Below are positions 35,456-62,706 of a DNA stretch of 64,000 nucleotides, piece after piece (within the stretch, counting starts at the first letter, position 1; each line of letters starts with the position of its first letter). The DNA comes from Alphaproteobacteria bacterium (GTDB lineage Bacteria; Pseudomonadota; Alphaproteobacteria; SP197). A program made the position numbers and the translations under genes. Location: NCBI GenBank assembly GCA_964291265.2, contig OZ219747.1:2048001-2112000 (forward strand), written 5' to 3'. Under the pieces are notes generated by a model, which had not been told where the DNA came from, ran no database searches, and saw only the letters and a program-made list of their open reading frames with translations.

Positions 35456-35472
35456 CGACTGGCGTCCTTTCC

Positions 35473-35520
35473 GGGAGAGGACCGGGGAGGCTGGTGTTGC
35501 GCCGGTCTCCTCCTTTTCTT
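35473..35520 (+). terminator. Possible intrinsic terminator after SBP gene
   Basis: Imperfect GGAGAGGACCGG...CCGGTCTCCTCC stem followed by TTTTCTT, between convergent genes. Confidence 0.4.
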
Positions 35521-35534
35521 GAGCGCGGTCGCGA

Positions 35535-36032
35535 TCACCCTGCCCGGGTGAGCGCCAGGTTGTGATGCCGGTCCCTGGTGGCGGACCAGCCATCGGGCAA
35601 CCGCGATGGTGGCCGTGTCGTCCTCGATCAGGGCCGGCCCTCGCGCGTGCCGCACCGGGCGCCATCGCGGTCCGGTGACCGATGACGCCGTCACGCCATT
35701 CTCTCTGGTCTCAGGTAGCGCGAGGGCTCAGAGGGGGATCCCCTCGTTGTCCGGTTCCTCCTTCAGCGTCGGCACGTCCTCGAGCGGAGCCGACACGCCG
35801 AGACGGAAGGTGACGATCTCGATGGGTCTGGAGGCATCACCGCCATGCATGAAGACCCTGTGATGCTCATCGGCGCAACGTGTCCTCAGACCACCGGTTG
35901 TCAGCCCTGACGGCGGATCCATGGGGACCGCGACCTCGAATGCCTGTCCGACGAATCTCATGTCGGCAATGAACGACATGCGTGGCCGGGATCCAAGGCC
36001 CATCAGGACAAAGCGCTCGATCGCGCGCCTTG
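35535..36032 (-). pseudogene. Duplicated, frameshifted 3' fragment of hydantoinase/oxoprolinase A
   Basis: ADMRFVGQAFEV...GPALIEDDTATI split across frames; copy of 57832-58325. Confidence 0.88.
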
Positions 36033-36120
36033 CCAGGGCACGGTTGATTTTCGTCTGGTATCCTCGCCCGGAAGACCTGAAGTGCTCCACCACCGAGCGC
36101 TTGACTCGACACGGGACACG
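36033..36120 (-). pseudogene. BrnA-like antitoxin remnant
   Basis: RVKRSVVEHFRSSGRGYQTKINRAL resembles the BrnA motif (R...V.E.F+..G.GYQT.IN.AL). Confidence 0.55.
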
Positions 36121-38698: not shown

Positions 38699-39481
38699 TC
38701 AGTAATGGCGTGGCATCTCGGTGACGCGACCGAGAACTTCGGGCTTGTCGGCCGGCGGCGGAAGATTGCCTCGCGATCCGTCCGCTTCCGCCACGCGCTT
38801 CTGGAATGCGATGGCAGGCTTGTAGAACATGTGAGAAAACTTGGACCAGGGCACCGATCCAAAGAGCACCGTGGTGGAGACGGCATACAGGCCGAGGAAG
38901 ACATCGGCCACCGGACTCTCCGCCGTCTGGAGGAGTCCCCAGATGAACGCCATCGTCGTGCTGACCAGGAGCGAGAGGATGAAGAGGTCCGCACGCACGA
39001 TTCGCCAGGGGGGATGGCCTTCAGCGGCCACGTCAACCCGGATGAAGAACCAGAACCAGTATCCGCCGCCGCAGACCATCACGATGCCGAGATACCAGAG
39101 CAGGGGCCAGATGGCGGGAGTCGGCGTGGCCGAAGTCGGGTAGCCGAAGACCATGGCGATGGTGGCGGCAAGATAGGCCACGAATCCGTACATGGTCAGC
39201 AGGTGCGCGATCCTGCGCCGCAGGTTGCAGAATTCACCCGAAGCCAGCACGTCGACCGCGGAAGCCTGGACTGCGAGGGACACCATGTGAGCGCCACTGA
39301 CCGGCCGGTTGCCCCGGTTTCTCGCGTGACGCCAGTTGTCAAAGAAGTACCGGGCGCTCCTCTTATGGAGCACATCGAACAGGGTCCCTCCCACGACCAG
39401 CAGGATCATGGTGACGACAAAGGCCTGCGTGACTGCAGGCGCTACGAGAAGCCCTGCAAAGGGATTGCCGAAGAACATCAT
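38699..39481 (-). CDS. aprM: Adenylylsulfate reductase membrane anchor
   Basis: Multi-TM; HKRSARYFF, SGEFCN.RRRIAHLLTMYGF, VPWSKFSHMFYKPA; directly upstream of aprBA. Confidence 0.88.
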   Translation of the reverse strand: MMFFGNPFAGLLVAPAVTQAFVVTMILLVVGGTLFDVLHKRSARYFFDNWRHARNRGNRPVSGAHMVSLAVQASAVDVLASGEFCNLRRRIAHLLTMYGFVAYLAATIAMVFGYPTSATPTPAIWPLLWYLGIVMVCGGGYWFWFFIRVDVAAEGHPPWRIVRADLFILSLLVSTTMAFIWGLLQTAESPVADVFLGLYAVSTTVLFGSVPWSKFSHMFYKPAIAFQKRVAEADGSRGNLPPPADKPEVLGRVTEMPRHY

Positions 39482-41199
39482 TCGTCCCTGGTTTGACCGA
39501 AAGCGAAGTTCGGTGGCGGCATCGGCCCTGAACGCCGGTCACGGGACCGCTGCGCTGTCCGTGATCTCATCGGGTGCGTACTGCTGTCGTGGTCGCATGA
39601 CGTCGGATCTGCCGGCATGAAGCCACACCCTCCGTGCTCGTATCGTACTGATGAACCCCGCCGGCCGGGCCGAAGGGAAGCGATGGTGCCACTGTGCCCC
39701 CTTTCTTCCGGCTTATCAACATGGGGCGTGCGCCGGACAAGGCCTTCCCACGCTGGAATTCGCTTGATTTCACTTGACGTCAGGCGTTCGTATGTTGCAC
39801 GCGCGCGGACATTTCCCGCTGGCCATCCCGCTTGGGATGTGCGACGGTCCGGTCATGTCGATTCGCAAGCTCATGGAAGCTGTCCCGATCCATCAGGAAG
39901 CACCTGAGGGTTTTTCCCTGTCTGAGGTCGATGTTCGCCTGGCGAGGCCGGAGGAGCGTCCGCTGTGGGACGCGCTGATGAACAAGCACCACTATCTCGG
40001 CTTCCGTCGCCTGGCGGGTCGCGGTCTGCGCTACCTTGCGACCTTCAGGGGCCATTGGCTGGGGCTGGCGGCGTGGCAGAACGGCGCCTTCAAGTGCGCT
40101 CCCCGCGACCAGTGGACCGGCTGGAAGCCGGAGCAGCAGTTCCAGCGGCTCTCGATGGTAGCCAACAACACGCGGTTCTTGATCCTCTCCAAGCCCGGGG
40201 TGTTTGCGAACCTTGCTTCCTGTTTCCTTGCGTGCATGACGCGCCGGCTCTGTGACGATTGGCTGCAGGTGCACGGCCACGGGGTGCTGCTGGCGGAGAC
40301 GTTCTGCGATCCGGAGATCTTTGCCGGCACGATGTTGAAGGCTGCGGGCTGGACGTGTCTGGGTGAGACCAAGGGGTTTGCCCGCTCCAACGGGCGTTAC
40401 ACCGATCCTCACGGCAAGCCCAAGGATATCTACGTTACGGCACTGAGGCGCGATGCCCGGGCGCTGCTGTCGAGCCCGCTGCCGCTTCCCCCCGACGTGG
40501 CGCCGCCCTCATGCCCCGAACTGGCGCCCCGGGACCCCAAGGTGCTGCGCTCGCTCTACGCCGAGCTCGCGGCCATTCCCGACTTCCGCCGGGCGCAGGG
40601 AAGGAAGCATACCGCGGCATCGGTGCTCACCGTGCACGTGCTCGCCGAGTTCGCCAACATGAAGGGCTGTGTCGCCGCCGCGCAGTTCGCGCGGTCCCTG
40701 TCCCAGGAGGAGTTGGAGGCCATCGGCGCGTGGCTTAACCCGAAGACGGGGCTTCGCGAGCCCGTCTCCAAGTCCACCATCCACCGGGTTATCCAGTCGA
40801 TCGACCCCGAGGCTCTGGAGGATGTGCTCACCCGCTGGTCCCGGCCTCGGCTTCACCTCGCCCGTGCACTCGCCGCCGACGGCAAGCGCATCCGCGGCGC
40901 CAACCGCAACGGCGATGGCCGTCTGAGAGACCGTGGCCCTTGTCGACCATGAGACCGGCGCGCCCTTTTCCCTCCTGAACTTCAACGACGACGGCGGCGA
41001 ACTGGCGGCCATGCACGATCTCCTGGAGCGCAGCGACATCGGCGGCAAGGTGATCACACTCGACGCACTGCACACGACACGCCATACCGCAAAGCTGATC
41101 ACACAACGCGCGGATTACGTCTTCGTCGTCATGTTGATGGCTGCATAGAACGGCGGGATTTCGGCGATTTGCCGCGCTTTGTCAGGGTCGTGTTTCTTC

Positions 41200-41291
41200 C
41201 CTGTTGTCAGGTCCTATTGTCACGTCCTGTTGTCGTGGTTTGAGTGTTCGGCTGGTTGTCTCCCCGAGCGCCGCCGTCTTTTCCTATTGTC
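41200..41291 (+). repeat. CCTRTTGTC motif x4 (three at 13-bp period); inverted copy near right end
   Basis: Copies at 41200, 41213, 41226 and 41283; ACAATAGG at 46330-46337. Confidence 0.7.
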
Positions 41292-41612
41292 GTTTTGGTC
41301 CGGTTCGGGTTGTTCCGTCGGCCTCTGCTTCGGTCTTGGTGACGGTTGCCGGGAGGGTTCCGGTTCCGAGGCACTCGCGGGATTGTTTGTCTTCCCTGTG
41401 GGCGGGTCGCGTTGTCCGGTCCCGGGGCGGCGTCTTTGCCGCCGCCCCGGGTGGATGCTAGATCGGCATCAAGAGAAAGAGCGATGCGATGCCGGGCGGA
41501 GTTGTGACGCCCCCCGGCGCAGCACCCGGACGAGCCGGTCACGGGGGACCGAACTCCCGTGTATTGTCGAGCCATTTTGCGTCCGGGTCCACCCCCGCTC
41601 TCGAGACGGACG

Positions 41613-42089
41613 GTGTGCACGACAGGACGACTGTTCAACTGCAGGCGGTGTCAGCGGCAGGTTGTTCTCTGCCGGTCGTGTGACCGGGGGCATGTGTATT
41701 GCTCCAAGGAGTGCAGGGAGCGGTCCCGGATCGAGCGGCGCCGCGCGTCGCGTCGTCGCTACCAGAGCACGCTGAAGGGCCGTGAGACGGGCCGTCACCG
41801 CCAGCGGCGTTACCGGCTCCGCAAGGCGGAGGAGGCGCGTGCGTTGAAGGCCAGGGCGGCGATGGTTGCCGAGATCATGGACACGCAGACGTCTGCTGTG
41901 GTGCTGCTTGGCGACGTTCCGGCGGTGTCTGGAGACGCCGGTTCTGAAGAAATCGTTACGGACCACCCTTCCCGACTGCTGCCGACCTCCCTACCTGCGG
42001 TTGTGAAGGCGCAAGAGCGACGCGAATCGCCGCTTCGGTGCGCCAGATGCGGACGGGTCGTGACGCATGTGGTGCTGAGGGACCTGTGA
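41613..42089 (+). CDS. Cys-rich (Zn-finger-like), Arg-rich hypothetical protein upstream of istA
   Basis: CRRC...CRSCDRGHVYCSKEC, basic helix, C-terminal CARC; start uncertain (41559 or 41613). Confidence 0.65.
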   Translation: MCTTGRLFNCRRCQRQVVLCRSCDRGHVYCSKECRERSRIERRRASRRRYQSTLKGRETGRHRQRRYRLRKAEEARALKARAAMVAEIMDTQTSAVVLLGDVPAVSGDAGSEEIVTDHPSRLLPTSLPAVVKAQERRESPLRCARCGRVVTHVVLRDL

Positions 42090-42121
42090 TGCGGCGTTGA
42101 GGAACCAAAGGGAGGGAGTTC

Positions 42122-43615
42122 ATGGCGATCGACGAGGACACGCGGGCGACGATCGTGCGGCTGTCGCGGGCCGAGGGCTGGGCTGTGGGGACGATTGCCC
42201 GGCATCTCGGCGTGCACCACGGCACGGTGACGCGGGCGCTCAAGGCGTCGGGGCAGGAGCGGCGGCCGCGGGCCAAGCTCATCGACCCCTTCGTTGCCTT
42301 CCTCGGGGAGCGTCTTGAGGCGTCGCCGGACCTTCCGGCCAGCACGCTCTGGCGACAGGTCGTGGCTCTGGGCTACCGCGGCGGCGAGGATCACTTCCGT
42401 CACGACCTGCGCCGCCTCGGGCTGAGGCCGGTGAAGAGGCCCGAGCCGTCGCTGCGGCTGAGCTTCCTTCCGGGCGAGCAGGCGCAGGTTGACTGGGCCG
42501 AGTTCGGGAAGGTCCGCATCGGCCGGGCGGAGCGCAGGCTCATGGGGCTTCTCGTCACCCTCAGCTACTCGCGCCAGACTGTCCTGAGCCTGTTCCACGA
42601 CGCGCGGATGGCCAGCTTCCTGCAAGGCCATGTCGAGGCTTTCGCGGCATTCGGGGGTGTGCCGCGGAGGCTTCTGTACGACAACCTGAAGAGTGCCGTG
42701 GTGACGCGCCGCGGCAAGGCGGTCACCTATCATCCGATGCTGCTCGGCCTTGCGGCCCACTATGCCTTCGAACCGAGCGCCGCCTGGCCCAGGAGCCCGC
42801 AGGAGAAGGGCCGCGTGGAACGCCGTGTGCGCTTCGCGCGCACCGGGTTCTTCGCCGGGCGCGACATCACGGTCCCGCTCGGCGAGCTCAACGCCGCAGT
42901 TCGGGAGTGGTGCTTCGGCGCCGCCGCGGAGCGGCCCTGGCCGGACGACGACAGTCTCCTGGTGCGGGACGCCTTCGCCCGGGAGAGGGAGCACCTGATC
43001 GTCCTTCCCGTCGACCCCTTCCCGCATCACGAGGTCCGCCCGGTGCGCATCGACAAGACCTGCCACGCCCGCTTCGACACCAACGACTACAGCGTTCCGG
43101 GTAGCTTCTCCAAGGCCCTGCTGACGCTGGTCGCCGACCGCGACGAGGTCCGCATCCTCGACGGCGCCGACGAGGTCGCGCGCCACCGACGCTCCTACGA
43201 CAGGAAGCAGGCCGTCACCGATCCGGAGCATGCCAGGGCGATCGCCGCGGGCAAGCGGCGGGCCCGCTCCATGAGCGTCCGCGACCGGGTCCTGCGCACC
43301 GTGCCGCGGGCCGAGGAGATGCTGGCGCGCGCCGGGACCAACGGGCGCAACGTGGCCTCCTGCGCCCGGATGCTGGAGACGCTTCTCAACGCGCACGGCG
43401 CCGACGCTCTCGACCGGGCTGTCGCCACGGCGCTGGAGCGCGGCTCGTGCCACCCCGAAACCGTGCGCGTCATCATCGAGGAGCGCCGCCGGGAGCAGGG
43501 CCTGCCGCCCCTCAGCATCGCCGACGACGGCCGCGGCGGCCGTGGCACGACGCCGCGGGGGACCGCTCTCGACGCCTACGACAGGCCCGAAGCCAGCGCC
43601 AGGAACAAGACATGA
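42122..43615 (+). CDS. istA: IS21 family transposase IstA
   Basis: HTH N-terminus; DDE residues in QVDWA, YDNLKSAV, EKGRVER; GGAG SD. Confidence 0.93.
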   Translation: MAIDEDTRATIVRLSRAEGWAVGTIARHLGVHHGTVTRALKASGQERRPRAKLIDPFVAFLGERLEASPDLPASTLWRQVVALGYRGGEDHFRHDLRRLGLRPVKRPEPSLRLSFLPGEQAQVDWAEFGKVRIGRAERRLMGLLVTLSYSRQTVLSLFHDARMASFLQGHVEAFAAFGGVPRRLLYDNLKSAVVTRRGKAVTYHPMLLGLAAHYAFEPSAAWPRSPQEKGRVERRVRFARTGFFAGRDITVPLGELNAAVREWCFGAAAERPWPDDDSLLVRDAFAREREHLIVLPVDPFPHHEVRPVRIDKTCHARFDTNDYSVPGSFSKALLTLVADRDEVRILDGADEVARHRRSYDRKQAVTDPEHARAIAAGKRRARSMSVRDRVLRTVPRAEEMLARAGTNGRNVASCARMLETLLNAHGADALDRAVATALERGSCHPETVRVIIEERRREQGLPPLSIADDGRGGRGTTPRGTALDAYDRPEASARNKT

Positions 43616-44313
43616 GCGAGCTCAGGGAGCGTGCCCGGGCGCTCGGCCTCCACGGGCTCGTCGAACGCTGGGACGAGGTCGCCGGGACCGCATGGATCGA
43701 GGAGGTGGTCAGCGGCGAGGAACAGGCCCGCAGGGCCCGCAGCCACGAGCGCCGCCGCGCCGCGGCGCGGCTGCCCGCCTTCAAGCCCCTGGCGGACTTC
43801 GACTGGACATGGCCGCGCGACATCAGCCGGGCTCATGTCGAAGCGCTCCTCGGCCTCGGCTTCGTCGACCGTGCGGACAACGCCGTGCTCGTCGGCGGGC
43901 AGGGCACCGGAAAGACCATGATCGCCGCCAACGTGGCGCACCAGGCCCTGCTGCACGGCCACACCGTCCGCTTCGAGAAGGCGCCGGAACTGCTCGAGGC
44001 ACTCGCCGAGACCGTCTCGCGCAGCGAGCTGCGCCGCCGCCTCGCGATCCTCGCCAGGCCCCGCCTGCTCATCCTCGACGAAATCGGCTACGTGACCCTC
44101 GAAAGCCACCATGCCGACATCCTCTACGCCATCGTCTCGCGGCGCTATCAGCGCCGCTCGACCATGGTCACGACAAGCCTCGCCTTCGCCCAGTGGGACC
44201 GCGTCTTCCCCAGCGCCTCCGGCATCGCCGGCACCGTCGACCGGCTCATGCACGACGCAACCCTCATCTCCATCGACAGCGACTCCTGGCGGCTCAGGCG
44301 TGAAACCGGATAA
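43612..44313 (+). CDS. istB: IS21 family ATP-binding helper IstB
   Basis: ATGA overlap with istA; DFDWTW, GGQGTGKT, LILDEIGY, VDRLMH. Confidence 0.92.
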   Translation: MSELRERARALGLHGLVERWDEVAGTAWIEEVVSGEEQARRARSHERRRAAARLPAFKPLADFDWTWPRDISRAHVEALLGLGFVDRADNAVLVGGQGTGKTMIAANVAHQALLHGHTVRFEKAPELLEALAETVSRSELRRRLAILARPRLLILDEIGYVTLESHHADILYAIVSRRYQRRSTMVTTSLAFAQWDRVFPSASGIAGTVDRLMHDATLISIDSDSWRLRRETG

Positions 44314-45193
44314 ACCCCGCCGCGTCGACTTCGACGCCGTCAAGCGCATGCCGTTCGAACGCATCGCCGCCGACTGGGGATACGTCCGCGACGAACAGGC
44401 CTCGACACGCGCCAACCCCGTCCTGTGCGCACCCGGCCTGCCGAAGCTCGTCACGAAGTGCCTCAACAACGGACACTGGGTCTACTTCAACACCCAGAAC
44501 GATGAAGACAACGGAACCGTCATCGACTTCATGCTCAACCGCGGACTGGCCTTCGCCGACATCTGCACCCGCTTCGCAGCACCCGACGCCGCGCCACGCG
44601 ACTTCCGCAGCCTCTGGGCCGCGGCAACGCCCGATGCGGCCCCGGACTGGCTCACCGGGCGCGGCATCCTCCCAGAGACCCTCGACACCTGCCGCCCCCT
44701 GGTCCGCCGCGACCACAACGGACGCGTCCTCTTCGCCCATCGCAACAGGAAGCGAAAGCTCACCGGCTTCGAGATCGGTCCCCCCGACGGACCGAAACGC
44801 TTCGCCACCGGTGGAACCCGAAGCCTGTTCGCCGTCCGCGCCGGAACCGCCGCGGACCTCGAGGCCCTCGTCATCACCGAAAGCGCCGTCGACGCCCTCA
44901 GCCTGGCCCAGATCGACCAATGTCCCCCCAGCCACGCCTTCCTCTCCACCGCCGGGGCACCCTCGCGAAGACAGCACGAACAGATCAGCCTCGCCGCAAG
45001 CAGCCTGCCCAACGTCAGGACCATCGTCCTCGCCCAGGACCACGACGAGGCCGGAGAGCGACAGGCCGAAACCCTGCGCAAAAAGATGAAGCTCCCCTCC
45101 CACGTCTCGTTCCACAGACGCAGACCGCCGGAAAACGCCGACTGGAACGACGTCGTCAACGCCAGGACCAAAGAACCACAAGCGAGATCATGA
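44300..45193 (+). CDS. DUF3991/Toprim-domain primase-like protein
   Basis: GTG start overlapping istB; DNGTVIDF, LTGRGI, ITESAVDALS, AQDHDEAG (DxD), DWND. Confidence 0.75.
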   Translation: MKPDKPRRVDFDAVKRMPFERIAADWGYVRDEQASTRANPVLCAPGLPKLVTKCLNNGHWVYFNTQNDEDNGTVIDFMLNRGLAFADICTRFAAPDAAPRDFRSLWAAATPDAAPDWLTGRGILPETLDTCRPLVRRDHNGRVLFAHRNRKRKLTGFEIGPPDGPKRFATGGTRSLFAVRAGTAADLEALVITESAVDALSLAQIDQCPPSHAFLSTAGAPSRRQHEQISLAASSLPNVRTIVLAQDHDEAGERQAETLRKKMKLPSHVSFHRRRPPENADWNDVVNARTKEPQARS

Positions 45194-45510
45194 CCACGTC
45201 CGTCACAAGGAGACCACTCATGCCCCTCACGCCCGCCGAAAAGCAGCGGCGATACCGGGAACGGCGCAAGGCCGGCATCCCTCCCGTCCACACCCCAAAG
45301 CACCGTGACCGGCGCTCGCGACCGCAACGCTGGAACGACGCCGTGGCCGAACTGCGCTCCCTGCAGGACGAATGGCGTGACCACCTCGACAGCATCCCCG
45401 AAAGCCTCCGTGACACGCCTTACGGAGAACGCCTGCAGAGCGTCGCCGATGCCGACATCGAGGCCCTCGAGGACATCGAACCGCCACGCGGCTACGGAAG
45501 GGATACGTGA
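45190..45510 (+). CDS. Small hypothetical protein (basic N-terminus, acidic C-terminus)
   Basis: ATGA overlap with the Toprim gene; alternative ATG 45220 with AGGAG SD; TPAEKQRRYRERR...RSRPQRW...PPRGYGRD. Confidence 0.65.
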   Translation: MTTSVTRRPLMPLTPAEKQRRYRERRKAGIPPVHTPKHRDRRSRPQRWNDAVAELRSLQDEWRDHLDSIPESLRDTPYGERLQSVADADIEALEDIEPPRGYGRDT

Positions 45511-46104
45511 TCCCGCAAGACCCTTGAACGCGGTCACGCGTTACCATCCAGGAATGAGAACGTCTCACCCCGACGCGCCGCTCAGCCTCCCCGGGAAACT
45601 CCCGGGCCGTCCAAACGACACCGCATCACGAGACTGCCGCAGCCTCTGAGCCGCAGCGACGCCCGATCCGCCGCCGGGCTGGCTCACAGGTCGCAGCATC
45701 CGCCCGAAAACACTCAACGCCTGCCGCACCCTGCAGGACGAATGGCGTGACCGCCTCGACAGCATCCCCGAAAGCCTCCGTGACACGCCTTACGGAGAAC
45801 GCCTGCAGAGCGTCGCCGATGCCGACATCGAGGCCCTCGAGGACATCGAACCGCCACGCGGCTACGGAAGGGATACGTGATCCCGCAAGACCCTTGAACG
45901 CGGTCACGCGTTACCATCCAGGAATGAGAACGTCTCACCCCGACGCGCCTCTCAGCCTCCCCGGGAAACCCCCGGGCCGTCCAAACGACACCACATCACG
46001 AGACTGCCGCAGCCGCTGAGCCGCAGCAACGCCCGATCCGCCGCCGGACTGACTCACAGGTCGCAGCATCCGCCCGAAAACACTCGACGCCTGCCGCACC
46101 CTGC
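45361..46104 (+). repeat. Tandem duplication, 370-bp unit
   Basis: 45361 matches 45731 (CTGCAGGACGAATGGCGTGACC); 45721 matches 46091 (CTGCCGCACCCTGC); few mismatches. Confidence 0.9.
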
Positions 46105-46682
46105 GCCGCCGCAACCGCAACGCACGCAGCCTCTTCGCCCAGCGAACAGAAACCGTAAGCTCTCCAGCCTCGAGATCGTCCCGCCCGACGAACCACGACG
46201 AGGCCGGAGAACGCCAGAACAAGACCCCGCGCAAAAGCCTGAAGCTCCCCTCCCACATCACGTTCCACAAACGCCGACCGAAACGACATCGTCACAACGT
46301 CAACGTCAACGCAAGACCAATGGGATCCAACAATAGGCAGAAAACAAAGACCGGGCGGACCTTCGTCCAATGCCGCACGTTCTCCTGTCGTGGTCACCCA
46401 CTCACACGATCAGCGCCCAAAAGAGCGGTTCTCCGCCAATATCCCGCCGTTCTAAATCGCCGCCGACACGTCAAGGGCAACGCTCCGGAGACCTTCGCTA
46501 TCCTCGACAGCATCAATTGGCAAAAAGACGCCACCGGCCACTTCACGGAGCCGTTCGACAAGGCGCACGGTCGACTGGAGCAGCGTTCGATCAGCGTCCT
46601 CGTCCCGTTGGACGGTCTGATCAACTATCCGGGCGTCCGTCAGGTCGCCCGCATCACCCGCTATCGGGAGCCGTGGAAGAAA

Positions 46683-46850
46683 GGCTCCGGCGATGCCGGG
46701 AAGGAAGGCTCCGGCGATGCCGGGAAGGAAGGCCCCGGCGATGCCGGGAAGGAAGGCTCCGGCGATGCCGGGAAGGAAGGCTCCGGCGATGCCGGGAAGA
46801 AAGGCCCCGGCGATGCCGGGAAGAAAGGCTCCGGCGATGCCGGGAAGCAA
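46683..46850 (+). repeat. In-frame 24-bp VNTR x7 (G[S/P]GDAGK[E/K/Q])
   Basis: GGCTCCGGCGATGCCGGGAAGGAA units, contiguous, inside the ISAs1 transposase 3' segment. Confidence 0.95.
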
Positions 46851-47318
46851 GAAGAGAAGGATTACACGGAAACCGATTACATCATCACCTCTCTCGATAC
46901 GGGGGCCACGTCGCCGGAAGAGTTGCTGCGACTGAACCGCCGCCACTGGGCCGTGGAAAATCTGAACCATCGACAAAGGGATTGCGTCTTCGGCGAAGAC
47001 GCCTGCCTGACCCGCACCGACAACGGCCCGGCGAACCGGGCCAGCCTCAACAACATCGCGCTCGCGGTGATCTTCGCCAACCGCCGCGAGGCCGAAAGCC
47101 TCGCCGAAACCCGGCGCCGCCTACAACTGGACCGTCGCGAGGCCATCAACGCCCTGACCCGGCCCTGAGACGCCTTGAGCGTCCGGGGACCCCGGAACGC
47201 TGCTAGACCGAAGTTCCGGACGTTTTCCAGCTGGAAGTCGCGTCAAGTCGTTGATCTTGCGCGGTTTATCGGGTTTGACGGACTTCACAACGTACCCATG
47301 TACGGATGCATTTTGTGC

Positions 47319-47347
47319 TTGACACACGGCAGTGCCGTGCCTATGTA
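47319..47347 (+). promoter_or_regulatory. Putative sigma70 promoter of IS1634 transposase with palindromic spacer
   Basis: TTGACA-17 bp-TATGTA; the spacer contains CACGGCA-G-TGCCGTG. Confidence 0.5.
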
Positions 47348-48791
47348 CAGTAGCCATGTACATCGAAGCCGTCCCCAACCGCTCCTCGCCGCCCGCCATC
47401 CTGCTCCGCGAGTCCTATCGCGAAAACGGAAAGGTCAAGAAGCGCACCATCGCCAACCTCTCCAAGTAGTCCCCCACCCTCGTCGAGGGATTGCGCATCC
47501 TCCTCAAGGGAGGAACAGCAGTCCGACATCTCGACGATGCCTTCGACATCGTCCGCTCCCTTCCCCACGGGCATGTCGCCGCAGTGCTGGGAACCCTGAA
47601 GAAGCTGGGACTGGACAGGCTGATCGACCCGAAGCCCTCGGCACGGCGCGATCAGGTCCTGGCCATGATCGTGGCACGCATCCTCGAGCCCGCCTCGAAG
47701 CTGGCCACGGCCAGGGGGCTGGCCGAGGCCACGGCGGTCAGCACCCTGGGCGAGGTCCTCGATGCGGAGATGGACGAGGACGCCCTCTATGGCGCCATGG
47801 ACTGGCTCCTGGAGCGTCAGGAGAGGATCGAGCGGTCCCTGGCGAAGCGGCGCCTCGAAGAGGGCTGCCTGGTGCTCTATGACCTGACCTCGGTATGGAT
47901 GGAGGGGAGAGCGTGTCCCCTGGCAAGGAGGGGTCATTCCCGGGATGGCAAGAAGGGCAAGCTGCAGATCGAGTTCGGCCTTCTGTGCGATCGGGACGGC
48001 TGTCCAGTGTCGGTGGAAGTGTTCCCCGGCAACACGGCGGACCCCGGGACGGTGGCATCACAGATCACCACGCTGCAGGAGCGCTTCTCCCTGGCGAAGG
48101 TGGTGCTGGTGGGAGACCGGGGGATGCTGACCGAGGCGCGCATACGCGAGGAGGTGAAGCCTGCGGGCCTGGACTGGATCAGCGCCTTGAGGGGACCGGC
48201 CATCCGCGCCCTTGTGGAGGCCGGCGACGTCGAGATGTCGCTCTTCGACGAGAGGGACCTGGTGGAGATCACCAGCGATGCGTATCCCGGCGAACGCCTC
48301 ATGGTCTGCCGCAACCCCCTGCTGGCCGAGGACCGGGCCCGCAAGCGCCAGGAGCTGCTCGAGGCCACCGAGGCCCTGCTTGAACCGATCGCCGCAGCGA
48401 CACGGCGCGACAAGCGCCGTCTCAAGGGTGCCGACAAGATCGGGGAGCGGGTCGGCAAGGTCATCGGTAAATACAAGATGGCGAGTAACTACTCACCCCC
48501 TACTGATGACGGATCGTTTTTCCTGACGGGTTCGGATCCGGCATTGTCTCTTGCCGCCTTCACTTGCTCGCTTCCGATGATCGGATGTGCGTGTTCCGAC
48601 TGACAAGAAGCGGATCGATCTTCGTCTTCAGCTCCACGTTCCGGCCTTATATGGCCAGGTTTTGTCCCCGTGATGATGCAATCATCCACAGCGGTTGGCT
48701 GCCTTTCCAATCCTCTGGAGATATGCGCTTGACATTGTAGGAGGGGCACTCTACATGCAGGCCATCGGGGCGGTTTGCGTCGGAGATATTG

Positions 48792-49466
48792 ATGGCGGCA
48801 TGGTATGGATCGAAGGCGACGACGGGTCTGAGCCAGGCGATCGTCGCGGCCATGCCGCCGCATGACGTGTACATCGAGGCGTTCCTTGGGGGCGGCGCGA
48901 TCATGAAGCGCAAGCCACCGGCGCTACGCAGCATCGGCATTGACCTCAACCGCCGGGCGATCGACACCTTCCGCTGTGACTATCCGGTGGAGCTTCACCA
49001 AGGCTGCGCCCTGCGTTTTCTCGAGACCTTCGCCTTCCAGGGCCGCGAGCTGGTCTACTGCGACCCGCCTTACGTGCAGTCGACGCGCCGGTCGCAGCGC
49101 CGCTACCGCTTCGACTGCACGGACGATGACCATGTTGCGCTCCTCGACATCCTGACGTCGCTGCCCTGCCAGGTGATGATCTCCGGCTATCCCTCGCGGC
49201 TCTACGACACGCACCTCGCCGGCTGGCGCTCGGCCGAGGTCCAGGTCAACAACCAGGCCTGCGTTGTCACCGAGAAGCTGTGGTTCAACTTCGCACCGGG
49301 CCGACCGCACTGGCATACGTGTGCGGGCAGGAACTCGATCGACCGCCAGCGCATCAAGCGCCTCGCAGAGAGCTGGGCGCGGCGCTACCGGACGATGCCC
49401 GAAGGCGAGCGGCTCGCCGTGCTGGCGGCAGTCATGGCGGTGGAGGCGTCGTCATGGCGAGCGTGA
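48792..49466 (+). CDS. Compact Dam-like DNA adenine methyltransferase
   Basis: YGSK, motif I IEAFLGGGA, motif IV YCDPPY, VMISGY, EKLWFN; GGAG SD; its 3' end overlaps the transposase start. Confidence 0.85.
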   Translation: MAAWYGSKATTGLSQAIVAAMPPHDVYIEAFLGGGAIMKRKPPALRSIGIDLNRRAIDTFRCDYPVELHQGCALRFLETFAFQGRELVYCDPPYVQSTRRSQRRYRFDCTDDDHVALLDILTSLPCQVMISGYPSRLYDTHLAGWRSAEVQVNNQACVVTEKLWFNFAPGRPHWHTCAGRNSIDRQRIKRLAESWARRYRTMPEGERLAVLAAVMAVEASSWRA

Positions 49467-50147
49467 ACGGCACGTCTGTGCGCCAGGAGGCCGACATCTT
49501 CCAGAAGCAGTTCCAGGATCTCCGCAAGCAGGGCAAGGTCAACCAGGAGTGCGAGGAGCTCTTCCGCGGCATGCTGATGCTGATAAAGCTGTTGCTGACC
49601 GTGCTCATGGAGAAGATCACACGTAAGACAAGCCGGAACTCCGGTCTGCCGCCATCGCAGACTGACAAGGACGAGAGCGCGAGGCGCACCGGGAGCCACG
49701 GCAAGGGCCCGAAGCCGAACCAGCAGACGGGCGACAACCTGCGCACGACCACCGTCGAGGAGACGATCGTCGTTGATGCCTGCGACGCCTGCGGCGCCGA
49801 CCTCCACGACGTTGACCCCGTCGACCGGGAGTGCCGCGTCCTCTACGACATCGTGTTCGAAGTCGTCGAGCGCCGCGTCGAAGCCGAGATCAAGGAATGT
49901 CCGAAGTGCCGGGCCCGGACCAAGGGCCGGTTCCCAGACAACATGCCGGGCCCCCTGCAGTACGGCGTCAGCATCCAGGCCCTCGTCATCAACCTGCTGA
50001 TCGCCCAGATGCTGTCCCTGCGTCGTGCCGTCTCGCTGTAAGCGTTCGGCCGTTCGGTGATGGCTGATTTTGGTTGGTTTGGGTCTTGCTGACTATCGTC
50101 TGAGAAAGTGCTGGTAAACTCGTTTGGTCTCGATTATGGTCGAGGCC

Positions 50148-52580
50148 ATGAAGACTTTTGCCGAGACGCGCGGAGCGACACAGCAGCTGACGGGAGGTGG
50201 TGACGGCCTATGTCGGGCGTCAGTGGCCTTGTCATGCGAGGCGCCTGACTGGCGTGCGCTCTATGAGGCGGAGCGGGTTCGTGCGGATGCGGCGGAAGCG
50301 CGTATGCGGTGTGCCAGGCGAACTGGCGGAAGGTAGGGGGTGAAAGTCCCCTGGAACGAAGGAGTAACCAAACCACGTTTCTCCGCGAGCCGTGCGTCGG
50401 TTCCCGCGAGGGGGCAGGCGAAGCGTCGGTAGCGGTACGGATGGGCAGGGCTAATGAGCACCGAAAAAGCTATCATCCGGGGTGCCGAGGCTTTCGCATT
50501 GGTCGAAGGCAACATCGCAGGCATCGATTTGGTGAGATGTCGGCGAGCCCCGCGGTGTCAGAGAACCCATGCACGTCCGCACGCCTTCTGTTGGGACCCT
50601 GGGAGATCTTCAAACCGTCCCGCCGGTTGTGGCGGGACCGCATGGGGAAGGAGAAAACCGAAGCCTATGATGTACGGTTTGAAGAAGTCGGATGAGGCCG
50701 TAGTACCTGTGAAGGCGGCGAACAAGGAAGCGTTAGCTTCTGCGGAGTCGCTGGAGGAAAGGGCCTCAACCAAGGGGAATCCGGGACGCTAAAGCACGCA
50801 CCGAACGCAGTGTCGGGCAAGCGTGCCACAGGCGGCGGATCGGATACGGGAAGCCGCAGGCTAGTCCAGTGGTTTGCCGTCCAGTACCCGAGGTAGGAGC
50901 CGGATGGATTAACGTCCACGTCCGGATCTGCGCGGGGGGTGCGCAGCAATGCGCATCCCTACCGCGTCTGACCTGCGCCGTGCGAAGAATTCTGCCCGTG
51001 CCCGTGCGGGCACATTCAAGTTTCATCTCGACCGCACTCGTGATCAGCTCAAGGAGGCTCGCCGGGAGGTGAAGCGTGGACAGGCCCGAGCGGAGGCGCT
51101 GGAGCAGGAAAGGGACGCTCTGAAGCTCAAGAACGCTGAACAGGCGAGCGAGCTGAGGAATCTCCGCGGGACGCGTGCCAAGCACGCGACGGCGCGCTTC
51201 GGGTCGAAGAGCGAGAAACGGAAGAAGAAGGAAGGCACCGGGAACAAGCGGGGTCAGCAACCCGGCAAGAGCGGCCACGGGCGCACTCCGCGTCCGAAGC
51301 TCAAGGAGAAGCACGAACGCCATGATCCACCGGCATCGCAGCGCACGTGCCCGTGTTGCGGCGAGCCCTATGTGGCCAACGGCAGCCACGAGACCTCGAT
51401 CATGGAGGTCCATGTCAAGGCTCATATCCGGCGGATTGAACGTGGGCGTTGGCGCCGTGGTTGTCAGTGTTCGTCGGCGCCTGCGGAGATCATCGCGCCG
51501 CCACCTTTGCGCTTGCTTGCGAATACCCCCTTCGGCATCAGTGTCTGGGAATGCGTGCTCTATGAGCGCTTCGCCTGCTTGCGTCCCCTGCGCCGGGTCT
51601 CGCGATGGCTGGAAGACCAGGGACTGCCGATGGCGCCGGGAACGATCGCTGGCGGCATGAAGAAGATGACGCCGATGTTCGCGCCTCTCGCTCAGGCCAT
51701 CCTCGATCATCAGAACCGGCTGACGGTGCGCCACGGCGACGAGACCAGCTGGCGCATCCAGTCCCTCAAGGCCTCGGGGCGCTCGCAGAAGGCCTGGCTG
51801 TGGACCGCGGTCAGCGCCGACTCCGTCTTCTTCCTTATCGACCCGTCACGCAGCACCCGGGTGGCCATGGTGCTGTTCGCCTCCACCGAAGGTGTCGTCT
51901 TCCTTGTTTGCGACCGCTACGTGGTCTACAGGAAACTGGAGCGTGAGCTTGATGGCAAGGTGATCCTCTGCCTTTGCTGGGCGCACTCCAGGCGCGATGT
52001 GATCGAGGCTGCGGCAGGCCAAGAGGGGCTGGAAGAGTGGTGCGACAAGTGGCTCGACAGGATCGCGCTGATCTACACACTGAATGGGCAACGGCTGAAG
52101 CACTACGATCCCGCACGCAAGCGTCAGTCAGCGAGGTTCAATGCCCTGCAGAAGGACCTTCGTGCGGCTGTCGAGGCGCTGTTCAGGCAGGCTCAGGAGG
52201 AACTCGACGCCTTGCCCGAGGGTGCACGCGAAGCGAAGCCCTTGCGTTCCCTGATCCGTCACCGCGAGGGACTGTGCGTCTTTGTCGACCATCCCCAGGT
52301 GCCCATGGACAACAACTTTGCCGAGAGAGCCCTCCGGGGTGCGGTGACCGCGAGAAAGCTGAGCTTCGGCTCCGACAGCGAGGAAGGCGCCGCCTTCACC
52401 GCCATCATGTACTCGGTCATCGGCACCCTTGCCATGAACAACATCAATGTTCGGCGCTGGCTTCATGAGTGGCTTGAGGCCTGCGCGCAGAACGGCGGCA
52501 AGCCGCCGGATGACCTCGACCCGTGGCTGCCATGGTCGATGCCCCCGGAGCGTCGAAGGGACCTCATGGAACCGGGGTGA
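50148..52580 (+). CDS. IS66 transposase B, two exons (50148-50308 and 50969-52580)
   Basis: Spliced junction reads AEARMR/DLRRAK in frame; FGSKSEK, CPCCG, HGDETSW, VCDRY, LCWAHSRR, DNNFAERALR. Confidence 0.8.
50309..50968 (+). ncRNA. ORF-less group II intron (IIB-like), 660 nt
   Basis: 5' GTGTG; domain V GAGCCGGATG...CACGTCCGGATC (50897-50928); domain VI stem with GCAA loop and bulged A at 50961; EBS1-like CGCAT (50495-50499) complementary to the exon end ATGCG. Confidence 0.88.
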
Positions 52581-52870
52581 TCGAGTGCCGTTACGACGGC
52601 CGTGACTTCACCGCGCACGAGATGGCGCTGTTGCGCTCCCTGATCACCCAGCACCCCACCCGTGCGGCCATCGCCCGCGCCTTCTGCCGCGAGACCGGCT
52701 GATACAAGCCCGACGGGGCCTCAAGAACATGATGGCGAATGTCGCCTTTCTGGCCATGCACCGCGACGGCCTCATCACCCTGCCGCCACCCCAACGACGA
52801 GCAACCCGACCCGGACCCATCGTCTTCGGACCCAACAGCGAACCGCCACGTGGTGCGCCTCCCAAACGCA
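52577..52870 (+). pseudogene. Truncated N-terminus of an IS66-associated DUF4338-type protein
   Basis: GTGA overlap; RYDGRDFTAHEMALLRSLI...R..IARAFC...G*YKPDG, then a frameshift, then LAMHRDGLITLPPP. Confidence 0.6.
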
Positions 52871-54933
52871 TCCTCAACCGGTGAATATCACCAACAATCA
52901 CCGCGTGGCCGAACGCTTACGTCTCGCTCGTGCACGCGATCTCCGGCATCAAGCTCTCCGAGGCGACCTGCCTCGGCTATGTCCGGCGCTTTCACGATGC
53001 CCTCGCATCATGGGAGGAGGCCGCCGTGGCCCATCTCCTGCAACAACCGGCCCTGCATGTCGACGAGACCGGCTTCCGGGTCGCCGGCAAGACCCAATGG
53101 CTCCATGTCGTCACCGACGGCACCCTGACGTGCAAGTTCCCGCACCCCAAGCGCGGCCGGGAGGCGATCGAAGAGATCGGCATCATCCCGCGCTACAAGG
53201 GCGTCCTGATCCACGACTGCTGGGCTGCCTACATGGGCTACGATCAATGCCGCCACCAACTGTGCGGCAGCCATCTCCTGCGCGAACTGACCTTCGTCGT
53301 CGAGTCCAACGGCTACCGCTGGGCGCGACTGATGAAAAGCCTGCTGCGCGAGGTCTCCCGCAGGGTCAACAAGAGCGCATCCAAGACCTTGAACGAGGCC
53401 GACCGCCGGGCCGTGCGCAAGCGCTACCGCACCATCCTCACCCAGGGCGCCAAGGAACTGCCCGACATCCCGCCACGGACGAAAGGAAAACGTGGACGCA
53501 TCGCAAAGTCCGACGCGCACAACCTGCATGAACGTCTCGTGAAACACGAGAAGTCCGTCCTGCGCTTCATGAAGGACCCCAACGTCAGTTTCACCAACAA
53601 TACCGGAGAGCAGAAGATCAGGATGACAAAGGTCAAGATCAAGGTGTCCGGATGTTTCCGCACCATGCCCCACGCCAAAGCATGGTGCCGAGGCTCAAGC
53701 TACCTCACCACCATGGACGCACTCGGCTACAACCCTCACGTCGCCATCCACATCGCCCTCGACGGAAAGGCCGTAGACATCCTCAACCAACACTACGGAC
53801 AACCAGACCCTAACAAGGGGTGAGTAGTTACGATGGCGAAGCACTTCACGTGGTCCATCGACGACGAGGGTGTCTTCACCTATGGGCGCGATGAGGTTGC
53901 CATCGCCGCCGAGGCCAGGCTCGACGGCCTCTACGTGATCCGCACCAGCCTGCCGCAGAGCGAGCTCGACGGTCCCGGCACGGTGCGCGCCTACAAGCGG
54001 CTGAGTTCGGTGGAACGGGCCTTCCGCAGCCTGAAGACCGTGGATCTGAAGGTCCGCCCCGTCTACCACCGCACCGAACCCCGGGTCCGCGCCCATGTCT
54101 TCCTGTGCATGCTCGCCTACTACGTTGAATGGCACATGCGCCAGAGACTGAAGCCCATGCTGTTCGACGACGAGGATGCCGAAGGCGCCGAGGCCCGGCG
54201 GCCGTCCGTCGTGGCGCCGGCAGAAGTCTCGGCGAGCGCCCGGGCCAAGGCGGCAACGAAGAGGACGCCCGGGGGTGATCCGGTGCACAGTTTCCGCACC
54301 CTCCTCGATGATCTCGCGACCATCACCCGCAACACCGTGGCGCCCCGCCTTGCGGGCGCCAAACCCTTCCAGGTCACCACGCGGCCCACGCCGCTCCAGA
54401 GAAGGGCGCTCAAGCTTCTGGGCGTGGAGCCGTAGTGTACTCAGTCAGATGCTTCTGAGATCCATCGAATGTCATTCATATCAGGTACTTGCACTTGATC
54501 GGCGCTGGAACTTCGGGCTAGAACATCAAGAACCAAGCATCCGGGCCGAAAACGCTGCCGGTGTCGCCATGCGGACGGCACTGAAGCCACGGAATCCGTC
54601 CAGGACATCCCGATTCGGCCTCGATTCGTCGGCCTCGCGAAAGATCAGATGGCCGATTCGGGCGCGATTCATCGGCTTCCCGAAAAATCAGCCGTAGCGT
54701 AGGAAAGTCCTGTGCGCCGGATCAGCCTTCCAGCGCTCAGTGGAATGAACCCTTCATGGGGACTTACCCCGGTCCCCTACCGCGACAAGCCCCTGCGAAA
54801 CATGACAGAGACGAGGGAGGTCACATCTGCCCGGCATCCGCTCCCTTCCTTCTCCGGGAGCTGTCGCGGCATTGCGCAAGGGGTCCGGACCGGATATCTG
54901 ATCGCGCAGCCACCCGTATCGGAGCAGCCCACC

Positions 54934-56103
54934 ATGCCGAACCTGGTTCCTCCGCATGGCGGCGGCGCGCTGAAGCCCCTGCTGCTCCCTGCGGCGGAGA
55001 TCGCGGACGAGATCGAACGTGCCCGTCGGCTGGTCAGGGTTCCATTGATCAGCCGGGAGATATCGGACCTCTTCATGCTGGCAATGGGCGCCTACACTCC
55101 TCTGGCGGGTTTCATGGGGAGAGCGGACTGGTACGGCTGTTGCGTCGACATGATGACATCCGATGGTATTTTCTGGCCGGTTCCCATCACCGTTTCCTGC
55201 GACGAGGATCACGCCGAGGGCATCCGTACTGGCGACGAGGTCGCACTGGTGGATGGCATGACCGGGGAGATCCTGGCGATCCAGACGGTCAACGAAAAAT
55301 ACCCCATCGACCGGGAGCTGGAGTGCCGCGAGGTCTTTCGCACGACGAACGACGTCCACCCCGGCGTCAGGAAAGTCCTGGAACAACCGGCGATCAACCT
55401 GGGCGGTCCGATCGCGGCGCTCTCCGAGGGTCATTTCCCCCGCACCTACGCGGAGCTTTACTTGCGGCCCGTGCAAACGAGGGCCATGTTCAGGGCCAAT
55501 GGATGGTCAACCATCGCGGCCTTCCAGACCCGCAATCCGATGCATCGCAGCCATGAACACCTGGCCAAGATCGCCGTCGAGATGTGTGACGGACTTCTCA
55601 TTCATCAGGTACTCGGCGCTCTCAAGCCCGGTGACATTCCGGCAGGCGTGCGGGCCAAGGCGATCAACGCGCTGGTGGAGAACTATTTCGTGCCCGGAAC
55701 AGTCATCCAGGCGGGCTATCCCATCGAGATGCGCTATGGCGGCCCGCGCGAGGCTCTGTTGCACGCGGTCTTTCGCCAGAATTTCGGATGTACCCATCTC
55801 GTGGTCGGCCGCGATCACGCCGGTGTGGGAGACTTCTACGGTCCGTTCGATGCTCACCACATCTTCGATGCCCTGCCGGCCGGCAGCATGGAAATCCGGC
55901 CGCTCAAGATCGACGTCACGTTCTTCTGCTACAAGTGCGGCATGGCGACCGGCAAGACCTGCCCGCACGGGGAAGAAGACCGTCTGGCCATATCCGGCAC
56001 CCGGTTGCGCGCGATGTTCGCCAATCACGAGCCCATTCCCGAAGAGTTCAGCCGGCGCGAGGTGATCGATGTGCTGCAGGCCCATTACGACAGTCTTGCC
56101 TGA
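54934..56103 (+). CDS. sat: Sulfate adenylyltransferase (ATP sulfurylase)
   Basis: [45 protein letters not shown]; start re-called at MPNLV. Confidence 0.95.
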
Positions 56104-57193: not shown

Positions 57194-57752
57194 TCCGGCG
57201 AGGCCGTCAGCAGGCGCCCCAGGAGGCCTGGTATGTGCCGGCCTGTCGTGGACATGTGCGAGGGCCTGCCGGGCTGGGAGGCGTTGAACGATTGCACGGC
57301 ACTCTTCGAGACCGCGGACACCGCGCCTTCGGGACGCTTCCTCGACTATCCGGCCGAGTGGGGTGATTCGAACAGCAAGCGCATCGAGGCGCTCGATCTT
57401 GATGACGTTTCCATTCCGTCGGGAGGCGAGGGTTCGCTCATCACGGAGATCCGCTCGGCCGTCGAACGCGAGGCGCCGCTGCTCCTGATGTTCCGGGAGC
57501 CGCACTGGATCCATGCGCAGATCGACCTTCAGCGCGTCTTTCTTCCCGAGTACTTCGATGGCTGCCGCTCAAGGAGTCGCACCCGGGCGCTTGGAGACTG
57601 CTCGAGGTCTATTGTCGATCACCAATGCCGAGCAGGCCCAGATGATGTCGGAGATTGACGACAAGGGCTGCGATCTGACGGAAGTCGTCCGGGAATGGCT
57701 CGACAACAATTCCGGAACGGTCGAGGGCTGGATCGATCAGGCGTCCATGTAA
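57194..57752 (+). pseudogene. Degraded 3' duplicate of the OpuAC-family SBP gene
   Basis: VVDMCEGLPGWEAL...; frameshifts and a deletion; no 5' half. Confidence 0.9.
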
Positions 57753-58325
57753 CGACTGGCGTCCTTTCCGGGAGAGGATCGGGGAGGCTGGTGTTGCGCC
57801 GGTCTCCTCCTTTTCTTGAGCACAGTCGCGATCACCCTGCCCGGGTGAGCACCAGGTTGTGATGCCGGTCCCTGGTGGCGGACCAGCCATCGGGCACCGC
57901 GATGGTGGCCGTGTCGTCCTCGATCAGGGCCGGCCCTGCGAGTGCCGCACCGGGCACCATCGCGGTCCGGTGACCGATGACGCCGTCACGCCATTCTCCC
58001 TGGTCGTGGTAGCGCGAGGGCTGGAAGGGGATCCCCTCGTTGCCCGGTTCCTCCTTCAGCGCCGGCACGTCCTCGAGCGGAGCCGACACGCCGAGACGGA
58101 AGGCGACGATCTCGATGGGTCTGGAGGCATCCCCGCCATGCATGAAGACCCTGTGATGCTCATCGGCAAAACGTGTCCTGAGACCACTGGTTGTCAGCCC
58201 TGACGGCGGATCCATGGGGACCGCGACCTCGAATGCCTGTCCGACGAACCTCATGTCGGCAACGAACGACATGCGTGGCCGAGACCCAAGGCCCATCAGG
58301 ACAAAGCGCTCGACCGCGCGCCTTG
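57194..58325 (+). repeat. Right copy of the ~1.2-kb direct repeat
   Basis: Matches 34793-36032 with a ~90-bp deletion and small indels in the SBP part. Confidence 0.93.
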
Positions 58326-59847: not shown

Positions 59848-60255
59848 GGCTCATTCCCCGGCTGCCGGCGGCAGCAGTGTAGTCAATGAAGGCCGATCGC
59901 AGCCAGGCGAACCGGCAGGCATGCGACACCGTCGCGCCACTCTCGGCACTCGTGACTGTCCACACCCTCGTCGCTTTCTCGAATGAACCCGGGAGATCCA
60001 CGTCAGCTTGATGATGGAGACAAGGTTCAGACGTCCTGACCTCGTGAGTTGACTTGATCCGTCCGGACCTTCTTTTTTTCCAACACAATGAACGGGTTTC
60101 CCAGTTTTTTGCTTGACACCATAGCCGCACCTTCGGTGCTGAACGGAACTGTAACCCACTGAAACAAAAAGCGTTCTCTCTCACGACATTCCGCCGGGGA
60201 AGCGGATTCATGCCGTTTCCGTACCCCCGGTGCAACAGGAATCGGGGAGAATGCC

Positions 60256-62552: not shown

Positions 62553-62706
62553 GATCAGCATCACCTCCTCACTGCGCGAGATGGATGACCCGATCCACGT
62601 GCCGCACGGTGTCTTGCACGGGTCGATTCCTTGACGACCTCCCCGGCCTCGGTGCATTCAGTTGGCATCGTACGAGTGCCGGTGTGAAGGACGATCGACT
62701 GACCGC

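Follow-up and report, generated by a model that had tools for sequence, protein, structure and literature searches.

A five-level nest of six mobile elements in an alphaproteobacterial genome: probable passive growth by insertion sequences and a site-targeting ORF-less group II intron

That mobile elements become nested through random landing in a growing neutral target has been set out as a principle (PMC3072357), and in Wolbachia 18 insertion sequences (IS) are split by nested insertions (PMC3205602). Here we describe the same elements-in-elements pattern in a 64,000-nucleotide stretch of the genome of an Alphaproteobacteria bacterium (assembly GCA_964291265.2, contig OZ219747.1, positions 2,048,001 to 2,112,000 of the forward strand), hereafter the window, in whose own numbering coordinates are given unless another contig label is attached. 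Six mobile elements form a five-level nest at 39738-54712, placed between two sulfur-metabolism genes. With five levels and five families the stack is deeper than those described in the two reports, and it can be resolved in full, since young intact copies exist for each family.

The innermost element, a group II intron without an open reading frame (ORF), has relatives in behaviour among several described introns. The TeI3 introns of Thermosynechococcus elongatus (PMC2882425) likewise show deletion of the domain IV ORF, altered exon-binding sites (EBS) and identical copies in diverged host elements, and they use the reverse transcriptase (RT) of a sister in trans, which we can only infer for the present case; their host is another intron, whereas the host here is an IS66 transposase gene, the putative helper has no endonuclease match and the intron ends in UC. 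RmInt1 of Sinorhizobium (PMC8914252) shares an endonuclease-minus RT and insertion into the lagging-strand template. Also in Sinorhizobium, Sr.md.I1 lies in an IS66 transposase ORF, as does the intron here, and RmInt2 has two sites per IS on opposite strands (PMC4615759), as does the host element here, although in our genome the opposite-strand sites are served by two sister introns, one autonomous and one ORF-less. Among the IS, described IS21 examples of ~2.5 kb (PMC3281130) have IstA, IstB, TG...CA ends and a 5-bp target-site duplication (TSD) in common with the copy in the stack, which differs in measuring 5.3 kb and in carrying three further ORFs, including a plasmid-type DUF3991/Toprim gene adjoining istB.

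We put the probability at about 0.85 that this is a real five-level nest grown by six separate insertions, of which five are near-random survivors moved by DDE transposases and one is a retrohomed ORF-less intron. Such stacks likely result from random jumping and the loss of gene-breaking insertions in a genome that is one-fifth repeat. The stack is ordinary for this genome, because 20.6% of all bases lie in sequences of at least three copies (450 repeat blocks), it is the fourth-largest such block, and a second five-level nest is present.

Architecture of the nest

All six elements lie on the plus strand. The outermost is an ISAs1-family element (39738..54712) with a 9-bp TSD (39729-39737 and 54713-54721), and two elements have entered it: an IS21-family element (41132..46468; TG...CA ends; 5-bp TSD 41127-41131 and 46469-46473) in its transposase gene, and an IS1634-family element (47208..54516; 10-bp terminal inverted repeats (IR); 6-bp TSD 47202-47207 and 54517-54522) in its non-coding 3' end. 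IS1634 holds IS66-A (48485..53831; 8-bp TSD 48477-48484 and 53832-53839), which holds IS66-B (50038..52920; 8-bp TSD 50030-50037 and 52921-52928), both with GTAA ends and a single transposase gene, in IS66-B a single frame of 600 codons. The IS66-B transposase gene is in turn interrupted, on its sense strand, by the ORF-less group II intron (50309..50968; 660 nt), which has no TSD. Sequence and motif searches placed all five TSDs, as exact duplications beside recognisable element ends, where the original prediction had put them, and Pfam, NCBIfam and Rfam back the family labels.

With every inner element removed together with one TSD copy, the emptied lengths are 2318 bp for ISAs1, 1954 bp for IS1634, 2456 bp for IS66-A and 2223 bp for IS66-B; IS21 (5337 bp) and the intron are uninterrupted within the stack. 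A genome-wide search by end-to-end alignment found at least one intact copy of every element elsewhere: four of ISAs1, 29 of IS21, 10 of IS1634, 10 of IS66-A, one of IS66-B (intron-free) and 13 of the intron. Own ends and a TSD at each level, with free copies elsewhere, are the marks of a passive nested IS cluster. All 10 IS junctions of the stack are single-copy in the genome, and the stack therefore grew in place. Identity to the nearest other copy climbs inward, from 98.5% for IS1634 through 99.8% for IS66-A and 99.9% for IS66-B to 100% for the intron. It had been claimed that each excision restores the host frame; locally the frames are rejoined, and both IS66 elements regain open frames of 600 codons, but the ISAs1 transposase retains a frameshift near codon 365 and the IS1634 transposase a stop at 47467-47469 that is absent from nine open full-length copies. 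The outer two transposases are therefore broken whatever is excised.

The ISAs1 family is characterised by terminal IR and TSDs of 8-10 bp; the family here has imperfect terminal IR and TSDs of 9-10 bp in 13 paired copies, and its transposase matches PF13808 above the cut-off and NF033564 below it, the latter with an N-terminal piece only. A DruA (DUF4338)-like domain is fused N-terminally to this transposase (39774-40500, Pfam), and the gene contains a 24-bp tandem repeat (~46680-46850) whose copy number differs among ISAs1 copies. IS1634 matches NF033559 above the cut-off in both halves, besides its 10-bp IR and 6-bp TSD; its right part (53832-54516) is 99% identical to a second subfamily with other ends and 96-97% identical to full-length siblings, which suggests a mosaic copy. 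Both IS66 elements encode a TnpC transposase (NF033517, PF03050), and no family match to the accessory tnpA and tnpB of classic IS66 was found among the scanned ORFs. This is the single-gene form, which we take to be ISBst12-type; GTAA ends, an 8-bp TSD and one transposase gene are common to such elements and to IS66-A and IS66-B, whereas IS66-A adds a methyltransferase-like passenger and IS66-B a broken DruA-like remnant at its 3' end (52577-52860), read by eye.

The order of insertion can be read from the nesting, except between IS21 and IS1634. ISAs1 arrived first, where the sequence separating sat from the apr genes is poorly conserved and a relative has an empty site; IS21 and IS1634 followed into ISAs1, IS66-A into IS1634 and IS66-B into IS66-A, and the intron likely came last.

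Survival and targeting of insertions across the genome

The original prediction saw in the stack either a safe-haven sink or the targeting of elements by elements with an orientation bias, and genome-wide counts separate the two. The genome comprises 4.83 Mb in two contigs without N; six of its repeat blocks reach at least 13 kb, and the window outside the stack is nearly repeat-free. Ends of five IS families were paired by TSD and 88 rebuilt empty sites were classified; ends unpaired by TSD or of less than 92% identity were left out, and a few long pairings are perhaps wrong. Genes were called with our own dicodon model (3571 genes, 81% of unique DNA coding). Repeats (0.99 Mb) received 41 of the 88 insertions, or 41 per Mb, unique non-coding DNA (0.74 Mb) received 40, or 54 per Mb, and unique genes (3.10 Mb) received seven, or 2.3 per Mb. 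The sink accordingly holds as a genome-wide passive effect: per base, unique genes have 24-fold fewer insertions than unique non-coding DNA has, and repeats are no richer than the latter. Omitting this stack leaves 37 nested, 39 non-coding and seven genic insertions, and demanding three spanning copies alters little.

Whether insertion sites are enriched in other elements depends on the standard of comparison. Against the 20.6% repeat share the nested insertions are in clear excess (41 of 88, p=4e-8), but among non-genic sites there is none (41 of 81, with 57% expected from target size, p=0.26), and no single IS family deviates from that expectation. A general targeting of IS by IS is thus not borne out. 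Nor is an orientation bias: relative to their hosts, 20 inserted IS point the same way, 14 the opposite way and seven are undefined (p=0.39), or 16 against 14 without this stack, and none of the five IS families is biased by replichore. The shared orientation of four IS in the stack is a 1-in-16 coincidence.

We simulated ~500 insertions one after another, giving genes the reduced weight of 0.042 that was observed. Without targeting, this gene depletion produced nests of depth at least four in 99% of runs, and the stacks of at least 13 kb numbered 6.9 (95% range 3-11), compared with the six observed; twofold targeting gave 13.8 such stacks (9-19), and the absence of selection 0.7. The five IS would have survived through breaking no host gene, and each arrival would widen the harmless target, so that large nests would grow faster, as the model allows.

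Several points weigh against so passive an account. The gene-depletion weight was taken from the same data, which makes the simulation a consistency check and not an independent test. Mobile DNA was less abundant in the past, and with its share halved 40% of non-genic insertions would be expected to nest against 51% seen (p=0.07), so mild IS-on-IS targeting is possible. Some 'intergenic' sites, defined by our own gene calls, may be decayed elements, and gene depletion could stem from avoidance instead of selection. Lastly, insertions of three different IS, each into another ISAs1 copy, fall inside one 19-bp stretch at the 3' end of ISAs1 (uncorrected p ~0.008).

The last point belongs to an alternative that we consider improbable, namely that IS transposases prefer other elements, either generally or at structural hot spots, for example the hairpin and the A+T-rich stretch that follow the ISAs1 stop codon. 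Nucleotides 2123-2141 of ISAs1 (window 47190-47207 and 54517-54540), an A+T-rich stretch 3' of a short hairpin that follows the stop codon, have been entered by IS1634, IS21 and IS66-B, and a fourth element lies at 2085 (uncorrected p ~0.008 and ~0.006); five IS21 insertions, moreover, are within IS21 or split by IS21, and the excess over the repeat share speaks the same way. This excess disappears against non-coding DNA, however, twofold targeting over-predicts large stacks (13.8 against six), and the ISAs1 cluster was chosen post hoc among seven hosts. Hosts and positions are scattered apart from this one possible hot spot, with neither a preferred host or site nor a fixed orientation. No close ISAs1 copies were found in 22 other genomes of the genus (best 72-78% identity). 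Random jumping with survival outside genes is the reading that we retain for the five IS.

Two sister introns and the replication fork

True targeting of a site is seen in the innermost intron alone. It matches Rfam RF02005 with 170 bits (gathering threshold 49) and RF00029 with 33.6 bits, below the threshold of 40; it starts with GUGUG and has an unpaired A at -8 in its fold, in keeping with the domain I and domain V-VI structure, GUGYG start and bulged A of group II introns. The predicted intron inside IS66-B is thus a group II intron, corrected in that it lacks an ORF and that its 3' end is UC instead of AC. The UC end is found in 16 of 16 copies, departing from the AY end of the class, and an RT-bearing sister ends in AC. 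Pairing with the target includes EBS3 (A:T), although only five of six EBS1 and three of five EBS2 positions pair, which, with the UC end, counts against the retrohoming favoured below.

The sister is 1919 nt long and 94% identical to the ORF-less form over the first 551 nt, and the latter is its deletion derivative. The sister's protein has an RT match (RVT_1) and a weak maturase match (GIIM) but no endonuclease match. The two introns are distinguished by one base of EBS1 and by EBS2 and EBS3; EBS3 covaries with target position +1: A/T in the ORF-less form, G/C in the sister and C/G in a third variant. EBS1 tracks the 5' exon in loci of five relatives. The ORF-less intron has no contiguous match in 22 other genomes of the genus, where the only relatives are RT-bearing and 89-90% identical.

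Of 25 near-full IS66-B copies, 14 have the ORF-less intron at nucleotide 271, on the sense strand, and nine have the sister at nucleotide 1055, on the antisense strand; one copy holds both and three hold neither, so that 22 of 25 are occupied, and the mutual exclusion is significant (p=0.002). The ORF-less intron also occurs, with the same target motif, in an unrelated ABC-ATPase-like gene (named by eye from its translation) that is present twice, and all 12 empty matches to the target motif lie in IS66-B.

Replichores were defined by GC skew, which has its minimum at 786 kb and its maximum at 3306 kb; dnaA lies at 648 kb. In 30 of 33 close intron copies the sense strand is the lagging-strand template (p=1e-6), which, with an RT lacking an endonuclease match, is the RmInt1-type combination. 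The ORF-less site on the sense strand is filled in 13 of 16 cases when on the lagging-strand template and in one of 10 otherwise (p=0.0008); the antisense site of the sister is filled in 10 of 11 cases and two of 18, respectively (p=3e-5), and the link stands under five choices of origin and terminus. Each IS66-B copy presents exactly one lagging-template site, and its orientation therefore decides which intron fills it. Targeting with an orientation bias, as first proposed for the stack at large, is hence real for the intron, but the bias follows the replication fork and not the host element.

Hitchhiking in IS66-B as a general rule was our initial reading and was overturned by this replichore test. 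For the stack itself it would mean that the intron came as a passenger, in five events instead of six, from an intron-bearing IS66-B amplified as a unit. The seven IS66-B copies nearest to the one in the stack all bear the intron, and the two introns are found together in a single near-full copy, as amplification of occupied units would give. A passenger would nevertheless share the random orientation of IS66-B itself (16 against 10 relative to the replichore, p=0.33), whereas at both sites it is the replichore that governs occupancy; moreover, IS66-B haplotypes that differ from one another carry 100% identical copies of the intron, which is present in the unrelated gene too. We hold this explanation to be unlikely, although one to two intron copies per site point the 'wrong' way, and some hitchhiking or local inversion is possible.

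We favour separate retrohoming. Most likely the intron reached its fixed site in IS66-B by reverse splicing as a replication fork went through, with the 1919-nt sister presumably lending its RT in trans; positions, pairings and strand bias are what the sequence shows, and the fork-dependent mechanism and splicing of the intron are inferred. The intron is on the plus strand because the plus strand here is the lagging-strand template.

Host site, passenger genes and significance

The stack lies in the gap between divergent genes, 256 bp from the start of a membrane-anchor gene (38699..39481, minus strand) ahead of aprB and aprA, and 212 bp from the start of the sulfate adenylyltransferase gene sat (54934..56103, plus strand); both flanking genes are open. 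A sigma-70 scan of 39400-40000 gave no promoter-like site. Matches to sat were found in eight of 20 relatives searched. Four loci of the genus can be aligned without a break over the rebuilt empty site; a fifth (locus L002 in genome G004) has the empty site with the 9-mer in single copy and a short deletion after it. Locus L005 was taken from a BLAST alignment and left out of the multiple alignment of empty sites. The sequence around the outer TSD is less conserved than the flanks. A direct repeat of ~1.1 kb (34831-36035 and 57216-58328; 95-98% identity), which includes the 3' end of a hydantoinase gene, brackets the apr-sat block, and sat was found in only five of 12 genomes of the genus; for these two reasons the block may have been gained or lost by recombination.

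The original prediction also allowed that the outer IRs could move the whole 15 kb. Mobility as a composite transposon through the outer ISAs1 ends, now or formerly, is very improbable. Both outer ends are 100% identical to other copies over 70 nt, and the ISAs1 frameshift is common to nine of 13 loci with different TSDs, one of 10 near-full copies having an open frame; since the same frameshift recurs at loci with different TSDs, defective ISAs1 is likely mobilised in trans. Against this, each of the 10 IS junctions was found once, so that the whole unit is at no second site, and the outer TSD equals the ancestral empty site, as growth in place predicts. An assembly artefact, suggested by the multi-copy nature of every part, is scarcely credible given five independent exact TSDs (36 bp in total), exactly rejoining frames, unique junctions, an empty site in a relative and an assembly of two contigs without N.

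The second five-level nest (C2:933-956 kb) comprises IS66-A, IS66-B, the RT intron, a 16.7-kb integrase-relaxase island and IS66-A, and further nests of the same families include an ISAs1 that contains IS21 together with an inverted IS66-B bearing the RT intron, and an IS21 that contains two IS21. Islands of 13-17 kb (C2:933000-956000, C2:2129349-2142627 and C2:1751350-1765277) have tandem tyrosine integrases, 10-bp TSDs and a long relaxase-like ORF (by eye), and two different ones have inserted at one and the same point of the RT intron. The two IS66-B/RT-intron copies that have a large insert there are not one duplicated composite, since the integrase-relaxase islands in them differ. No other IS had been noticed in the window, and none matches our IS library, but a 103-bp multi-copy repeat and, after it, an island of tandem tyrosine integrases that also has an SNF2-like helicase gene begin near 60025 (60023-64000), the island being 94% identical to another locus of the genome.

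Two IS in the stack carry passenger genes. IS21 elements have TG...CA ends and TSDs of 4-8 bp, and the element here conforms with its tandem IstA and IstB ATPase, its ends and its 5-bp TSD; at 5337 bp and with three extra ORFs it departs from the two-gene plan of ~2-2.6 kb, and reads as an IS21 with passengers. It has 30 full-length copies in the genome, including that in the stack. All its ORFs are on the plus strand: a Cys-rich ORF of 176 aa (41559..42089) 5' of istA, without family match, open in 35 of 35 full copies and with homologues in the same position in other genomes; istA (42122-43615; NF033546, 222 bits, cut-off 160; open in 34 of 34); istB (43612-44313; PF01695; NF038214, 192 bits, cut-off 200; open in 37 of 37); a Toprim_2/DUF3991 ORF of 297 aa (44300..45193) that overlaps the end of istB and is open in 35 of 36 copies; and a small ORF of 106 aa (45190..45510) 3' of the Toprim gene, with a partial internal duplication behind it.

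A search of species-representative genomes with the Toprim gene returned 52 loci, all from alphaproteobacterial metagenome-assembled genomes. In nine other genomes the gene lies immediately 3' of istB, ~27 times in one of them, and the remaining loci are partial matches without adjoining istAB; the element is thus multi-copy in several of these alphaproteobacterial genomes. Against five other genomes, by a simple counting method, its dN/dS is 0.33-0.42, compared with 0.29-0.36 for istA at similar dS, which is consistent with purifying selection like that on istA. More distant relatives (26-38% identity) are plasmid DUF3991/Toprim proteins, and among 400 genomes of the phylum no istAB was found within 1.5 kb of six distant matches. 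Considered as a possible DnaG-type primase, the ORF matches Toprim_2 with E194, D247 and D249 conserved; it has no sequence match in the PDB, and a structure model from an eight-sequence alignment is poor (pLDDT 54). No description of the istAB-Toprim arrangement was found in listings and abstracts from a literature library with few subscription papers and without ISfinder. IS21 is among the circle-forming IS, and a primase-like protein encoded outside the IS, IEE, offers a precedent for action on transposition (10.1101/2023.06.07.543989). It is a tentative idea, with the odds against it, that the element typifies an undescribed subgroup in which a captured plasmid DUF3991/Toprim protein primes or processes the replication step of its own transposition; such a role, if true, would explain the at least 30 copies here and ~27 in another genome.

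The passenger of IS66-A is a D12/Dam-class adenine methyltransferase-like gene (48789..49466, plus strand; PF02086, TIGR00571 below cut-off), open in 12 of 12 full copies. It adjoins an IS66 transposase in three (G002, G009 and G010) of the five other genomes of the genus that have it; in G005 it is multi-copy in a different context. A literature listing yielded no paper on this pairing.

As a stack, the locus is of little importance; it is a clean and unusually deep outcome of an IS burst and of selection on host genes, and its value lies in genome-wide counts that allow targeting to be separated from survival. The passengers of IS21 and IS66-A, Toprim and methyltransferase-like, are conserved beyond this genome. 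The two introns, which together fill 22 of the 25 near-full copies of IS66-B, may be closing the family down, or its transposase may be coming to depend on splicing, and the sisters provide a natural within-genome test of fork-dependent retrohoming, including that of an ORF-less form that would borrow its RT.

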